Positions 187 to 10,317 of a stretch of 10,371 bases of DNA are shown here, in pieces. Below the pieces are notes generated by a model, which did no database searches, had not been told where the DNA came from, and saw only the letters and a program-made list of their open reading frames with translations. Origin of the DNA: a virus (lineage: Duplodnaviria > Heunggongvirae > Uroviricota > Caudoviricetes); IMG/VR virus record IMGVR_UViG_2565956719_000006. One strand, given 5' to 3'. The translations under genes were made by a program, and so were the position numbers. Positions within the stretch are counted from its first letter, which is position 1; each line of letters opens with the position of its first letter.

Positions 187-211
187 GCTGGCGGGAGTTG
201 AACCCGAGTCC
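187..211 (-). other. tmRNA (ssrA) 3'-end-like fragment, possible att-core remnant
   Basis: Minus strand reads GGACTCGGGTTCAACTCCCGCCAGC. This matches, with one mismatch, the T-arm and acceptor segment of E. coli ssrA as I recall it (GGACGCGGGTTCAACTCCCGCCAGC-TCCACCA). The terminal TCCACCA is absent. Directly abutting is a perfect 14-bp palindrome CCAATCATGATTGG at 174..187. Confidence 0.3.
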
Positions 212-3605: not shown

Positions 3606-4472
3606 TTAACGAATAGTGTCGTTACTTTGAAGTACAGCAAATGCCATTAATACTTCTAAAGTATATCTTCTATAAAATTTAACAAAACCAACATAGAAAA
3701 CATAGACGAAGAAAAAGCTAAGCATTATTGAAAGTAAACTATAAAGATAATCACTATGAGTACATAATCGATAAATAAAGGTTGGAACTGATACCCAAAA
3801 TGAAATTATAAAGATTAAACATATGTTTCTGCAAAAACCATATAATGCAACATAGTTTTGAATTTTTGTTTGATGTTGTTTTGAAAACTCATAAACATAA
3901 TGATATGCCAATCTGAAGAGATCATCATCAAGTCCGTTTTTATCTTGTAATAATTGGCGATTTGTTATGAACTTTTTCTCATAACCTTCTTTGATCATTA
4001 ACCATGTTGTATTAGCTAAATGAAATGGTAGAGATTGAGAATAACATAGTTTTTGTGTTATAAAATCCCATAGTATTATTGGACATAATACGCATTTGAT
4101 TATGCGATTCTTTATTTTTGTTTTTTTATCAGCGCTTCTCTCATCGCATGATGGGCTACAAATGCTTTCTGAGGTATCTATCAATTTTTTAAATAGATAT
4201 TTGGAAGGATATCCTAATTCTTTATTCATGTATTTTTCGATAAAAAATGCTGACGTGATAGAAATAAAATGTCCAGCTATATAAGATATAATAACTATTG
4301 AAGCGTAGTTCAAAATGCCAAAGATTTGACTTTGACCTCTGAGCAATTCACTTAAGTCAATAACAATATCTAGATCGAATGTCAAACCACAGAAATACAT
4401 TAATAGGATAAAAAAACCACCTGGTATTAAATATCCAAGAAAGTCATAGAATGAGAATGGATTTTGATTCAT
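3606..4472 (-). CDS. Polytopic inner-membrane protein of unknown function (AT-rich moron)
   Basis: 288 aa from ATG 4472, preceded by GGAGAG SD (the ORF-track start at 4496 is 8 codons upstream). About 5-6 hydrophobic helices (e.g. FLGYLIPGGFFILLMYFCGLTF, ICLIFIISFWVSVPTFIY, LYSLLSIMLSFFFVYVFYVGFV). Visibly AT-rich compared with neighbours, with an AT-rich 108-bp upstream spacer. Confidence 0.7.
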   Translation of the reverse strand: MNQNPFSFYDFLGYLIPGGFFILLMYFCGLTFDLDIVIDLSELLRGQSQIFGILNYASIVIISYIAGHFISITSAFFIEKYMNKELGYPSKYLFKKLIDTSESICSPSCDERSADKKTKIKNRIIKCVLCPIILWDFITQKLCYSQSLPFHLANTTWLMIKEGYEKKFITNRQLLQDKNGLDDDLFRLAYHYVYEFSKQHQTKIQNYVALYGFCRNICLIFIISFWVSVPTFIYRLCTHSDYLYSLLSIMLSFFFVYVFYVGFVKFYRRYTLEVLMAFAVLQSNDTIR

Positions 4473-4580
4473 TGTTGCTCTCCAATAATTTTTCAATTTG
4501 TAATATAACCTATATCTATATGTTAATAAATTACTTATATGTTCTTTTATGGCAGAGTTTGAATTCGTACGTGCTGATTT

Positions 4581-6122: not shown

Positions 6123-6485
6123 TTAATGACCTGCTGCGCGGAGTTTTCCGTCAGGTTCACCGGCAAGAGTCAGTAATTGTCCCTGGTCTTCCTGCAGAAT
6201 AGTCAGGCGACCACCGCGATTGACATACATCGGCGTTTCGGTGGTGTCTTCTTCGGAAATTTTCCCGCGGTTAGTCGGACGAACATATGAGAGTTTGTGT
6301 TTTATTTTCACACGGTTCTCATCAAACGGTTCGATTTCCAGGTTGAGCGAGACCTTACCTTTGGTTTTCGTGTTCATCACACCGGAAGCGACTTCACTGA
6401 GAACTGCGCCGATTTTGGTTTCAAATACGCCGCCGTCCAGCTCCCCGATAAATTCCTGCACGTTGGTACTGCGTTCGCTAGCCAT
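6123..6485 (-). CDS. yfdP: YfdP-like small prophage protein
   Basis: 120 aa from ATG 6485 with a strong GAGGAG SD. The ORF-track 226-aa form adds an Arg/Cys-rich, non-protein-like extension running into GC-rich non-coding DNA. Confidence 0.7.
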   Translation of the reverse strand: MASERSTNVQEFIGELDGGVFETKIGAVLSEVASGVMNTKTKGKVSLNLEIEPFDENRVKIKHKLSYVRPTNRGKISEEDTTETPMYVNRGGRLTILQEDQGQLLTLAGEPDGKLRAAGH

Positions 6486-6533
6486 TTTGCTGCTCCTCAT
6501 CATATCGACCCTGCAAGGTCGGTTGGTTTCTCC

Positions 6534-6622
6534 ACAAAACAGAGAAGAACACCTGCGGTGGCAGCCGCCCGGGTGGATTGGGTTATGAGCCCGTCGTCCG
6601 GTGATGCTCTTCTCTGTTTTGT
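6534..6622 (-). promoter_or_regulatory. Candidate structured leader RNA element: 15-bp perfect inverted repeat closing a 59-nt GC-rich loop, with boxA-like motif at its edge
   Basis: 6534..6548 (ACAAAACAGAGAAGA) is the exact reverse complement of 6608..6622. The enclosed segment contains two further short hairpins (GCGGTGGCAGCCGC; CGGGT...GCCCG). Minus strand at 6621..6633 reads CCGCTCTTTTTAC. It lies about 50 nt upstream of the yfdP-like SD. Confidence 0.3.
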
Positions 6623-6953
6623 AAAAAGAGCGGTACCAGCCGGAAGCAAGGGTACAAGCTGGTACCGCCAGGACTACACACAGCATAAAGTTGTGGTGCC
6701 GGGTGCCTCCCGGTGCCTGGCGAAGGTTGCACACCAGGCGGGTGGGTATCCACAGAAGGTCGACTGTCAGCCTCAACCTTAACCCGCGTGCGCTGAGCCG
6801 CATTCACCACAACGCTAAGGATTCTCTCTGGTTGAAAATACTTAGCTGTTATGTGCCTGCTTTTAGCCACATCAGGCGAGGTGGGCCTGGTTATTCCCCA
6901 ACAACAAGGATTCGGCTAATCTGGATGACTCTGTTCTTAGAGGGGATAATTAA

Positions 6954-7466
6954 ATGGGAGCGATTTATGTTAAACGTTTGATTCTGTCGGTAGCACTGAT
7001 AATACCGATAGCATCCAATGCTTCTGATGCTTTGAACCAGCCGAGCAGTAGTCTAAATGATGGTGTTGAGACTTTTTTTATTTCCTGCTTTGATATGCCT
7101 CAGGAAACAACTACTGATATGGACGCTTGTCAGAGAGTTCAGTTAGCTCAGGTTAGTTGGGTTAAGAATAAGTATTCGGTGGCCGCCCTGAATCGTTTGA
7201 AACAAGACAACAAGGATGATCCACAGCGTCTGCAGGAATTAACTGCTTCTTTTAACGCGGAAAGTGAAGCTTGGACAGAATTAATTGAGAAAGCGTCAAA
7301 GTCCGTCCAGGTTGATTATGCAGGAGGAACTATAGCTGGCACTGCAGTTGCATCACGTCAAATTGGTCTTCTGGAATTACAATCCCACGATATCTGGGAG
7401 CACTGGCTACGATTCGAGGACTCAACTCCTCCTCTTTTGCCAGAACCAAAGTTCAAATCTGAGTAA
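6954..7466 (+). CDS. Secreted/periplasmic protein with Sec signal peptide (possibly DUF1311/LprI-like), moron
   Basis: 170-aa ORF with SD GAGGGG. N-terminus KRLILSVALIIPIASNA|SDA is a typical signal peptide. Two Cys in the mature N-terminal part. Own intrinsic terminator downstream. Confidence 0.75.
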   Translation: MGAIYVKRLILSVALIIPIASNASDALNQPSSSLNDGVETFFISCFDMPQETTTDMDACQRVQLAQVSWVKNKYSVAALNRLKQDNKDDPQRLQELTASFNAESEAWTELIEKASKSVQVDYAGGTIAGTAVASRQIGLLELQSHDIWEHWLRFEDSTPPLLPEPKFKSE

Positions 7467-7493
7467 TAAGTCATCCAGATTGTTAAAGAGCGA

Positions 7494-7517
7494 AGCGTCC
7501 TATAGGGCGCTTTTTTG
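7494..7517 (+). terminator. Rho-independent terminator of the secreted-protein gene
   Basis: AGCGTCC-TATA-GGGCGCT stem (7 bp, one G-U) followed by TTTTTT, about 28 nt after the stop. Confidence 0.6.
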
Positions 7518-7594
7518 TTGCTAACGAATCATCCTGGACTTCATATGCCCCAGGCGGCTACTTCGTGGGCGTCCTGCCTGTTTGTTGTTTCTCT

Positions 7595-7630
7595 TGGGTA
7601 CATTATGTGTCTCAAAGGTACATTGTCAAG
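7595..7630 (-). promoter_or_regulatory. Putative leftward (PL-like) promoter with GTAC-core operator-like repeats
   Basis: Minus strand has TTGACA, an 18-nt spacer and TAATGT. Two direct GGTACATT repeats (7597..7604, 7617..7624) share the GTAC core of the OR palindromes. Confidence 0.3.
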
Positions 7631-7668: not shown

Positions 7669-8343
7669 TTAGGCTTTGATTTTGTATCTTCTTGGTTTTC
7701 CTGAGAAAATCACAGTACCAATTATAGAGCAATTACCGTTGATCTTAATGTAAGGCTCAGGCCAGTTTGGGTTTAACGCTTTGAGATAACGCTGTGTCCC
7801 ATCTTCTATCAACCTTTTGAAGGTGGTTTCACCTGTATCGTGCATCAATGCAATAACGTCGTCACCGTGGCAGGCAGGTACTTCAGGATCGACAAAAATC
7901 ATGTCTCCCGGGCGGTACTCATCAATCATTGAATCACCTATCACCCGCAAGATATAAGTCATTTCCCCACAGGGTACAGGGCAGGGATACGTTTCTGCTG
8001 TGCTCAAATCAACCTCAGAATATCCAACTTCTTTCCATGCTCCGGCCTGTACCCATGATATGACAGGGACTAATGTGATTTGTTTATTAGTGATTGAAAC
8101 ATCAGGTTTTTTTGTGATGTTCGTTGTCTGGTGTTCTTGATCGAGCCATCCGACAGGCAGGTCGAAACATTTTTCGATGTGTCGTGCCATGCTGTCACCG
8201 ATATTTTTAGTAGCACCATCTCCCATAAACCTGCTGGTCTGGGTTGGCTCGCGATCAATCATAGTGGCAAAGGAAGAATTCCCGCCAACACCATCTCTCA
8301 GTTTTCTGGCGTTAGACCGCCGGATGTCATGGATTGTTTTCAT
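7669..8343 (-). CDS. CI-like phage repressor (N-terminal HTH, C-terminal S24 LexA-like autopeptidase)
   Basis: 224 aa. C-terminal domain has catalytic Ser in VIGDSM and Lys in TFKRL, the LexA/CI S24 signature. Divergent from the cro-like gene. Confidence 0.9.
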   Translation of the reverse strand: MKTIHDIRRSNARKLRDGVGGNSSFATMIDREPTQTSRFMGDGATKNIGDSMARHIEKCFDLPVGWLDQEHQTTNITKKPDVSITNKQITLVPVISWVQAGAWKEVGYSEVDLSTAETYPCPVPCGEMTYILRVIGDSMIDEYRPGDMIFVDPEVPACHGDDVIALMHDTGETTFKRLIEDGTQRYLKALNPNWPEPYIKINGNCSIIGTVIFSGKPRRYKIKA

Positions 8344-9573: not shown

Positions 9574-10317
9574 ATGAGCACTAAATTAACCGGCTATGTA
9601 TGGGATGGTTGCGCTGCGTCAGGCATGAAGTTATCCAGCGTGGCAATTATGGCCCGCCTGGCTGATTTCAGTAATGACGAAGGTGTGTGCTGGCCATCAA
9701 TTGAAACCATTGCCCGCCAGATTGGCGCGGGGATGAGTACCGTCAGAACGGCTATCGCACGGCTGGAAGCAGAAGGCTGGTTAACGCGTAAGGCGCGTCG
9801 CCAGGGTAACCGCAATGCGTCGAATGTTTATCAGCTTAACGTTGCGAAGCTTCAGGCAGCGGCATTTTCTCAACTGTCAGATTCTGACCCGTCAAAATCT
9901 GACGCATCAAAATCTGCCCCGTCAAAATTTGATGCGTCGAAATCTGGCAAAAAAGCGGGTTTTCACCCGTCAGAATCTGGCGGGGATCCGTCAGTAAAAT
10001 CAAAACATGATCCGTCAGATAAAAAAACTTCTCGTCCGGACGCTTCGCAACCGGACACGCAGACGGCTGAACAGGAGTTTTTAACTCGCCATCCTGATGC
10101 TGTTGTATTCAGCCCTAAAAAGCGCCAGTGGGGAACGCAGGATGATTTGACCTGCGCACAGTGGCTCTGGAAAAAAATCATCGCCCTGTACGAGCAGGCT
10201 GCCGAATGTGACGGCGAGGTGGTTCGTCCCAAAGAACCGAACTGGACAGCCTGGGCAAACGAAATTCGCCTGATGTGTGAACCGCCCCGGGTTTCCTGGA
10301 GAGTGTTTTATCTGTGA
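9574..10317 (+). CDS. Lambda O-like replication initiator (N-terminal HTH domain, low-complexity linker); C-terminus possibly truncated or chimeric
   Basis: 247 aa with SD AGAGG. The Ser/Asp/Lys/Pro-rich linker coincides with the iteron array. The last 13 codons and the stop lie inside the terminal inverted repeat, which begins at 10277. Confidence 0.8.
   Translation: MSTKLTGYVWDGCAASGMKLSSVAIMARLADFSNDEGVCWPSIETIARQIGAGMSTVRTAIARLEAEGWLTRKARRQGNRNASNVYQLNVAKLQAAAFSQLSDSDPSKSDASKSAPSKFDASKSGKKAGFHPSESGGDPSVKSKHDPSDKKTSRPDASQPDTQTAEQEFLTRHPDAVVFSPKKRQWGTQDDLTCAQWLWKKIIALYEQAAECDGEVVRPKEPNWTAWANEIRLMCEPPRVSWRVFYL
9875..10030. repeat. Origin-of-replication-like iteron array with adjacent A-rich tract inside the O-like gene
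   Basis: At least five tandem ~15-bp imperfect palindromic units (CTGTCAGATTCTGAC, CGTCAAAATCTGACG, CATCAAAATCTGCCC, CGTCAAAATTTGATG, CGTCGAAATCTGGC, CGTCAGAATCTGGCG), then CCGTCAG repeats and AAAAAAA at 10021..10027. This mirrors ori-lambda organisation. Confidence 0.7.

Follow-up and report, generated by a model that had tools for sequence, protein, structure and literature searches.

Positions 6486-6953 of a 10,371-nt stretch of viral DNA (IMG/VR virus record IMGVR_UViG_2565956719_000006; "the window" in the following denotes this whole stretch) constitute a non-coding RNA region that is composed of a divergent copy of an STnc100/PasD-family small RNA (sRNA), a terminator and a conserved, folded 5' leader of the gene yfdP. 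The window matches the chromosome of Escherichia coli ATCC 11775 with 100% identity and comprises the immunity and early-left region of a lambdoid prophage of the e14/SfV/ST64B type that has no N gene; in leftward transcription (minus strand), the block 6486-6953 forms the distal portion of the leader of the early-left promoter pL. The arrangement is best explained as a modular chain of pL-leader RNAs: termination would insulate the downstream genes and generate the sRNA, and the yfdP leader would be processed on those transcripts that read through. We regard this overall explanation as probable.

The assignment to STnc100 (RF02076) extended over the entire length of the covariance model (see Table 1 for the score and for the coordinates of all features), and sister copies from phages phiES15 and ST64B reached 40.6 and 35.1 bits against the same model. 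The window copy possesses the conserved STnc100 core, UGGUGAAU...CACCGGGAGGCACCCGGCACCA, with its long-range closing helix; the 22-mer CACCGGGAGGCACCCGGCACCA is present as an exact match at 6692-6713 and was found in 128 copies among the viral contigs sampled, 18 of them of the pL/yfdP type. The closing helix is a perfect 9-bp inverted repeat with arms 106 nt apart that had escaped an earlier inspection of the letters alone (the sequence-only reading), and its two arms covary within the family (GCAUGGUG/CACCAUGC, GUGUGGUG/CACCACAC, UAUGGUG/CACCAUA). The signature hairpin behaves likewise: in a sister subfamily of pL leaders its stem reads GGUGG-AGGCA-CCACC, both partners of three pairs being exchanged and the loop preserved (as judged from the sequences themselves; the MAFFT/RNAalifold alignment of 10 STnc100-like cores shifted this hairpin by one base). 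Relatives carry hairpins equivalent to the 5' hairpin of the sRNA, of other sequence. The single-stranded stretch between core and terminator, UGCUGUGUGUAGUC, is a candidate for the seed in a processed sRNA of approximately 60 nt (6623-6685); no complementary target of it was detected within the window. The sequence-only reading had considered a novel sRNA at this site: an sRNA is indeed present, but as a divergent member of a family already described.

STnc100 is known as a multi-copy prophage sRNA whose expression was verified by Northern blot in enterohaemorrhagic E. coli; it overlaps the Hfq-bound EcOnc27 downstream of stx2 and is related to the Hfq-dependent PasD sRNAs of enteropathogenic E. 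coli. With STnc100, PasD1 and PasD2 and the overlapping EcOnc27/sRNA103 the window copy shares the full-length model alignment, the identical 22-nt core, the AGGCA hairpin, the long-range closing helix, the 5' hairpin, the Rho-independent terminator, the location in a lambdoid prophage and the occurrence in several copies per genome. In contrast to the described copies, which lie in the late region downstream of stx2 or near Q, it is situated in the early-left (pL) leader, where no member of the family had been described; it also differs in lacking a clear promoter of its own, in a score below the gathering threshold, in its first core hairpin (GCGGCUCAGCGC...) and in the annotation of its K-12 homolog as the protein gene ymfH. 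By analogy with EcOnc27 and PasD, it may act as an Hfq-associated, trans-acting sRNA.

Seven viral contigs (L129, L136, L153, L167, L176, L187 and L192) contain two 22-mer cores each, the distance being mostly 270-920 nt and about 4 kb in L176; the sRNA module is repeated in them. Upstream of yfdP in L006, L008, L014 and L027, the hairpin before the STnc100-like core includes tRNA-like T-arm motifs (GGUUCGAUUCC, GGGUUCGAAUCCC, GUCCGUUCAAUUCGGAC). A sigma-54 promoter of the form TGGC-N-GGCA in the upstream block was discarded, the GG-N10-GC spacing being broken by a 1-nt insertion in e14 and in the Kosakonia locus L026.

The sRNA ends in an intrinsic terminator whose stem is the 11-bp perfect repeat GCGGTACCAGC / GCTGGTACCGC (described as 9 bp in the sequence-only reading) and whose hairpin is maintained by compensatory changes in the relatives (GGUACC; GGCGUC/GACGCC; GUUAUCC/GGAUAAC). 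Conserved at this site are a GC-rich hairpin and a succeeding run of U residues: the tail reads GCCCUUUUU, GACCUUUUU or GCAAUUUUUU in relatives, and neither GTAC nor GCUCUU is kept. The string CCGCTCTTTTTAC (minus strand, 6621-6633), which had been taken for a boxA-like motif, is present as stated but represents the U-tract of this terminator; homologs have GCCCTTTTT, GACCTTTTT or GCAATTTTTT at the corresponding position, without conservation of GCTCTT. Two pairings involving the terminator region were considered and rejected: a switch between the pre-terminator UGUGUGU and the 5' arm of helix P1 of the yfdP leader (described below), as this arm covaries with its 3' arm and not with the invariant upstream stretch, and a pairing of the terminator tail with the Shine-Dalgarno sequence (GCUCUU/AGGAGC), which occurs in several relatives but is unconvincing since CU-rich tails pair with any Shine-Dalgarno sequence.

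Use of the terminator in vivo is documented for the homolog in the K-12 prophage e14, which is 89.5% identical to the window. Three minus-strand 3' ends were reported in it by Term-seq (Adams et al. 2021, supplementary files 1 and 3), and their coordinates were transferred via the K-12 e14 locus (L120). The end at 1201195 corresponds to window position 6623 and is the final U of the homologous U-tract. The end at 1201257 (window 6686) lies one base after the core closing helix and one base 5' of UGCUGUGUGUAGUC; because it directly precedes this conserved single-stranded stretch, endonucleolytic cleavage just 3' of the core may release the seed and terminator as an sRNA of about 60 nt. Of these ends, 1201423 (window about 6853) is the strongest and is located right after CAGGCAC of the upstream hairpin, which shows that the conserved block 6846-6884, recurring in otherwise unrelated leaders, is transcribed and ends upstream RNAs.

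Downstream of the terminator, the yfdP leader forms a strongly covarying three-way junction that is undescribed and unnamed: no Rfam family matched it, and a relaxed scan of 6480-6640 yielded noise only. An alignment of 21 versions from at least 12 enterobacterial genera was evaluated with RNAalifold, and the proposed pairs were compared with controls in which the partners had been slid by 1-3 columns and with 500 shuffles. In the 21 leaders, 97.2% of the cells were paired (43-60% with slid partners) and 12 of 37 pairs showed compensatory changes on both sides (1-6 in the slid controls); none of the 500 shuffles reached the observed value on four of the five measures, and 33 did so on the remaining one, further standard pair types. 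The long helix P1, a duplex of 24-28 bp, contributed 23 aligned pairs with 98.8% of the cells paired and five compensatory pairs. Four P1 columns are U-G in 14-21 of the 21 sequences, which identifies the minus strand as the functional one because these pairs would be C-A mismatches on the other strand. The 5' strand of P1 starts with the terminator U-tract, with which the GGAG of the motif GGAGAAAC(C/U)AAC pairs via G-U pairs; the junction can thus fold only on read-through RNA.

The leader precedes yfdP in phages of Escherichia, Shigella and Salmonella and also in Klebsiella, Enterobacter, Leclercia, Kosakonia, Phytobacter, Mangrovibacter, Atlantibacter, Superficieibacter, Scandinavium and Pseudocitrobacter; a version from Providencia has P1 together with a different apical part. 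It is always linked to yfdP: the module 6486-6670 moves with this gene into phages that have other upstream RNAs, and in phiES15 the sRNA and its terminator lead straight into kil, without the leader element. The apical hairpin of P2 is identical over 14 consecutive nucleotides to the anticodon stem-loop of the E. coli initiator tRNA (three G-C pairs and the loop CUCAUAA; the tRNA-fMet sequence was verified as a four-copy tRNA-Met gene in 5426 of 5426 genomes). Of this hairpin, GGCUCAU is kept in 19 of the 21 homologs, positions 37-38 vary (AA, UC, UA) and the stem is shorter in four. Pairing of the P2 loop CUCAU with AUGAG close to the ribosome-binding site, as a pseudoknot, was dismissed, since it is not conserved in the alignment.

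Table 1. Features of the block 6486-6953 and of its surroundings (positions are those of the window).
Feature	Position	Strand	Basis or remark
CI-like repressor with S24 peptidase domain	7669-8343	-	
pL-type sigma-70 promoter TTGACA-N16-CATAAT	7602-7629	-	strong; outside the block
ATGTACC operators at pL	7597-7603 and 7617-7623		full motif also at OR
Element A, conserved RNA of about 60 nt directly after pL: ACAGGCAGGACGCCCACGAAGUAGCCGCC, covarying 5-bp stem, GGAUGAUUCG	7525-7582	-	
Hairpin, also plus-strand terminator of the moron	7495-7510	-	
Perfect consensus boxA, CGCUCUUUAACAA / GCUCUUUAACAA	7480-7492	-	about 850 nt upstream of the block features
Variable spacer and 5' region of the opposite-strand moron	6885-6953		homology with SfV, e14 and ST64B stops at 6884 or earlier
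Upstream hairpin GCCUG-AUGUGGCUAAAAG-CAGGC	6855-6877	-	begins conserved block 6846-6884
sRNA 5' hairpin AGCUAAG...CUUAGC, directly before the core	6814-6846	-	minimum free energy fold
STnc100 (RF02076)-like sRNA	6621-6843	-	cmscan 45.4 bits, E=2.1e-7, model positions 1-206 of 206
sRNA core, multi-hairpin domain with closing 9-bp helix GUUGUGGUG / CACCACAAC (6805-6813 / 6690-6698)	6690-6813	-	perfect inverted repeat
Family signature hairpin CCGGG-AGGCA-CCCGG	6699-6713	-	within the invariant 22-mer CACCGGGAGGCACCCGGCACCA
Conserved single-stranded stretch UGCUGUGUGUAGUC, between core and terminator	6672-6685	-	kept in leaders with differing cores
Intrinsic terminator of the sRNA	6623-6668	-	11-bp stem 6658-6668 / 6630-6640, then UCUUUUU 6623-6629
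yfdP-leader element, three-way junction	6530-6627	-	fold z = -5.22, 21-leader alignment, RNAalifold, pair counts
P1, long helix	5' arm 6600-6627, 3' arm 6530-6553	-	5' arm includes the terminator U-tract; middle formed by the 15-bp inverted repeat
P2	6569-6599	-	
P2 apical hairpin CGGGCUCAUAACCC	6580-6593	-	14 consecutive nt identical to E. coli initiator-tRNA anticodon stem-loop
P3	6555-6568	-	
Motif GGAGAAAC(C/U)AAC, after and partly overlapping the P1 3' arm	6522-6533	-	nearly invariant in the 21-leader alignment
P4 hairpin CGACC-UUGCAG-GGUCG, just upstream of the Shine-Dalgarno sequence	6506-6521	-	fold, RNAalifold; 96% of cells paired
yfdP Shine-Dalgarno sequence GAGGAG	6493-6498	-	
yfdP	6123-6485, ATG 6485-6483	-	annotated in the identical strain ATCC 11775

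All inverted repeats on which the sequence-only reading had been built were recovered, and they turned out to be longer than it had stated: besides the terminator stem, the 15-bp repeat 6534-6548 / 6608-6622 extends to 25 nt with 84% complementarity (6534-6558 / 6598-6622). The proposed folding of the minus-strand transcript was borne out for both segments analyzed (6615-6850, z = -4.55; 6480-6635, z as given in Table 1), none of 200 shuffles being as stable in either case, and the suggested covariance among relatives was found in the terminator stem, in the core closing helix and in the yfdP leader. Its placement of the block in the early-left leader was likewise correct: the block lies between the CI-like repressor with pL and the first early-left gene, yfdP. 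As a whole, however, the earlier interpretation was only partly right, the idea of antitermination being reasonable for the complete pL leader and wrong for the features to which it had been attached.

The order repressor, non-coding block, yfdP is common to SfV, ST64B, mEp460 and LLS; on the minus strand the block is followed by yfdP, yfdQ (DUF2303), a gene for a YfbR-like 5'-deoxynucleotidase (named yfdR by the Prokaryotic Genome Annotation Pipeline, PGAP), an open reading frame (ORF) of low GC content, xis and int. The block starts about 640 nt downstream of the pL start and has a GC content of 0.55-0.57, compared with about 0.43 in its flanks. Matches to it were obtained in 2809 of 5426 complete E. 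coli genomes and in 61-74 phage records. The region between block and pL is variable in gene content: in the window it is occupied by a moron inserted antisense in the pL leader (ORF 6954-7466, plus strand), whose 170-aa product has a signal-peptide-like N-terminus and no Pfam match, and at the same site ymfI is found in e14 and orf33 in SfV. Because different phages carry different genes there, the site between element A/boxA and the upstream hairpin is an insertion hot spot.

The following sequence of events would account for the anatomy of the block. The hairpin 6855-6877 would stabilise the 3' end of upstream transcripts. Transcripts that stop at the terminator (6630-6668 and the U-tract) would yield an sRNA of about 220 nt (about 6843-6623), and cleavage just 3' of the core would probably produce, in addition, the seed-plus-terminator sRNA of about 60 nt, predicted to be of the Hfq-binding type; at the same time, the terminator would insulate yfdP-yfdQ-yfdR...xis-int from stray leftward transcription. 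Polymerases that read through would transcribe the yfdP leader, in which P1 would form by using the U-tract as its 5' strand and would serve as a processing site, most likely for RNase III. Cleavage at P1 would separate the sRNA from the mRNA and might set the stability or the translation of yfdP mRNA, with the P2 loop, P4 and the GGAGAAAC motif as the putative recognition or translation-control part.

RNase III is proposed because the conserved duplex of 24-28 bp between terminator and ribosome-binding site resembles the arrangements in the lambda N leader and in sib/tI; P1 has the length of at least about 20 conserved base pairs expected of an RNase III site, and its cleavage is predicted by this analogy. 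As in lambda tI/sib and at the RNase III site of the N leader, the structure exists only on transcripts that have passed a terminator; a long duplex in the pL leader separates a regulatory RNA site from the ribosome-binding site of the first gene; and in all of them a plausible RNase III substrate would decide the fate of the mRNA. In contrast to sib, which extends the terminator hairpin itself, the yfdP leader has a separate helix that is built with the U-tract and surrounds a three-way junction in which one loop is conserved. In sequence it resembles neither lambda element.

Some observations weigh against this explanation. The 45.4 bits of the window copy fall 1.6 bits short of the STnc100 gathering score of 47, and the first hairpin of its core is of the GCGG type (GCGGCUCAGCGC...), unlike the canonical CCCCCU...GGAGGGG. 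Directly upstream of the sRNA only weak sigma-70 promoter candidates were found, the best one (cTGAtg-N16-cATAAc) being without the -7 T; a pattern scan upstream of 6843 retrieved a single 9-of-12 match at 6946-6973, inside the start of the moron. As no convincing promoter of its own was found, the sRNA may be only a processed piece of the pL transcript. The transcript evidence comes from the K-12 e14 homolog, in which the core is mutated and yfdP deleted, and not from the strain of the window. Finally, a simple processing site does not account for how strongly the P2 loop is conserved in sequence.

There is a live rival, to which we assign a low but appreciable probability: the junction of the yfdP leader may be a binding platform, i.e. 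a translational operator or tRNA mimic, rather than mainly a nuclease site, with the 30S P site together with initiation factor 3 (IF3), methionyl-tRNA synthetase (MetRS), YfdP itself or an anticodon nuclease such as VapC as candidate partners of the initiator-tRNA-like arm. The E. coli thrS operator is an mRNA-leader mimic of a tRNA anticodon arm. The yfdP leader would resemble this type in that a 5'-leader hairpin upstream of the ribosome-binding site copies an anticodon stem-loop; it would differ in mimicking the initiator tRNA, in preceding yfdP and in the only partial conservation of the mimicry. The 14-nt identity with tRNA-fMet, the retention of C32-U36 (CUCAU) and of the GGG/CCC stem in the majority of the 21 homologs, with P3 varying freely, the constant tie of the junction to yfdP and the T-arm-like motifs of related leaders speak in favor of such a role. 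It is disfavored by the variation at P2 positions 37-38 and the shortened stems mentioned above, by the versions from e14, Scandinavium and Providencia, which lose the P2 motif yet keep P1, and by the probability of a chance 14-mer match to some tRNA, which amounts to approximately 0.01 (a rough estimate, not computed). Binding and processing may coexist in the same element. A more far-reaching proposal, in our estimation rather improbable, would regard the junction 6530-6627 as a new class of cis-regulatory RNA that is formed on read-through transcripts only and engages the translation or tRNA machinery by initiator-tRNA mimicry (candidate partners again being the 30S P site together with IF3, MetRS, or an anticodon nuclease of the VapC type, for which the arm would act as sensor or decoy); combined with the STnc100-like core and element A/boxA, it would provide RNA-only early-left control in lambdoid phages without N.

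The processing model was further weighed against three other readings. A protein-coding gene, or an N-like gene in decay, is very improbable. The sole ORF annotated over it is ymfH of K-12 e14 (103 aa, GTG start; locus L120, 3502-3813); in the strain with which the window is identical, PGAP lists it as a pseudogene with a frameshift. Compared with K-12, two 1-nt insertions are present in the window and two in SfV, stops interrupt every frame of both, and the substitutions are distributed evenly over the codon positions (9/12/12 in the window, 10/12/11 in SfV, 22/24/26 in ST64B), with no excess at third positions. The absence of a credible reading frame, as noted from the letters alone, was thus confirmed, and the additional suggestion of a decayed N-like gene fails as no ORF is conserved and none of the window ORFs is N-like. 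In K-12, ymfH runs across the working terminator and overlaps the STnc100-like RNA and the leader element without coding conservation, and conservation in the block tracks base-pairing; ymfH is probably a spurious protein annotation. That CI binds the GTAC-containing repeats as an OL-like cluster of operators is almost certainly incorrect as well. GGTACC is enriched in the window (six copies versus 1.04 expected; 0 of 200 shuffles reached six), two of the six copies being the arms of the terminator stem, and the true operators share the GTAC core; but the stem changes by compensatory substitutions, as an RNA hairpin does, and loses GTAC in relatives, the full ATGTACC motif has matches at pL and OR and none in the block, and the block occurs behind at least ten promoter/operator types, i.e. 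in heteroimmune phages.

A nut- or put-like signal for processive antitermination within the block, exerted in cis on RNA polymerase by the STnc100-like core or by the three-way junction, is improbable, although it has some points in its favor: an N homolog is missing from these phages, for the related phage LLS specialists have proposed a mechanism based on a put-like RNA but did not locate it, LLS has no element A but does have the upstream hairpin, the STnc100-like core and the yfdP leader, and STnc100-family cores are found at the head of long operons. However, the supposed boxA is the non-conserved terminator tail and is followed by a helix of about 28 bp instead of a boxB; behind the core stands its own terminator, active in vivo in K-12, and the junction lies downstream of it. 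The block has no similarity to HK022 putL or putR and no relevant Rfam match; CAGGAUGA, the only string in common with putL/putR, is part of the upstream element A. The prophage does resemble HK022 in being an N-less lambdoid phage with an HK022-related CI (GTAC operators) and RNA elements in the pL leader; in contrast to putL, a two-stem RNA of about 70 nt that directly follows pL, the block is situated behind terminators at about 750-1100 nt from the pL start and has no structural similarity either, and the position of putL is taken by another RNA (7525-7582) that precedes a consensus boxA, which put does not use.

This region, 7480-7582, is the better candidate for an antitermination signal, comprising a conserved 5'-proximal element and a consensus boxA. 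Element A was encountered in 45 distinct versions in the fetched loci, with an invariant 5' half and a covarying stem, behind at least ten different promoter/operator types; in an Enterobacter prophage (L016) it occupies exactly the putL position after an HK022-type pL. No Rfam family matched it, a relaxed scan of 7460-7610 giving only noise. In many phages, a hairpin and a consensus boxA follow element A; the unit of both (7480-7513, minus strand) is conserved in 13 distinct versions, the sequence after AACAAUC being different, and shows the same order of hairpin and boxA as rrn leaders. From these comparisons, element A is a candidate put-like antiterminator of N-less lambdoid phages, and the passage of pL transcription past the terminator of the sRNA is probably explained outside the block.

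Three features elsewhere in the window deserve mention. The ORF 3606-4496 (minus strand, 296 aa), between xis and the YfbR-like gene, has a GC content of 0.26-0.30, compared with about 0.43 elsewhere, and its product has no Pfam match; it resembles a moron of recent acquisition and is possibly a defence gene. Positions 192-206 (minus strand), close to the prophage end that carries the integrase, match 15 nt of the 3' end of transfer-messenger RNA (CGGGUUCAACUCCCG); this would fit an ssrA attachment site such as the one reported for LLS, a related phage. A near-perfect palindrome of 75 nt at 9875-9949 (plus strand), consisting of repeated GUCAAAAUCUGAC-like units and located inside a 247-aa ORF (9574-10317), could represent iterons or an origin; its match to mir-5880 was taken as chance.

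In consequence, a "hypothetical protein" (ymfH in K-12) or pseudogene (in the type strain) is replaced by defined RNA elements in about half of the complete E. coli genomes, and the widespread early module yfdP-yfdQ-yfdR is provided with a covarying leader RNA that had no name. The location of an STnc100/PasD sRNA in the early-left leader would link sRNA production to prophage induction, and element A with its boxA offers concrete candidates for how lambdoid phages without N may pass the terminators of the pL operon.

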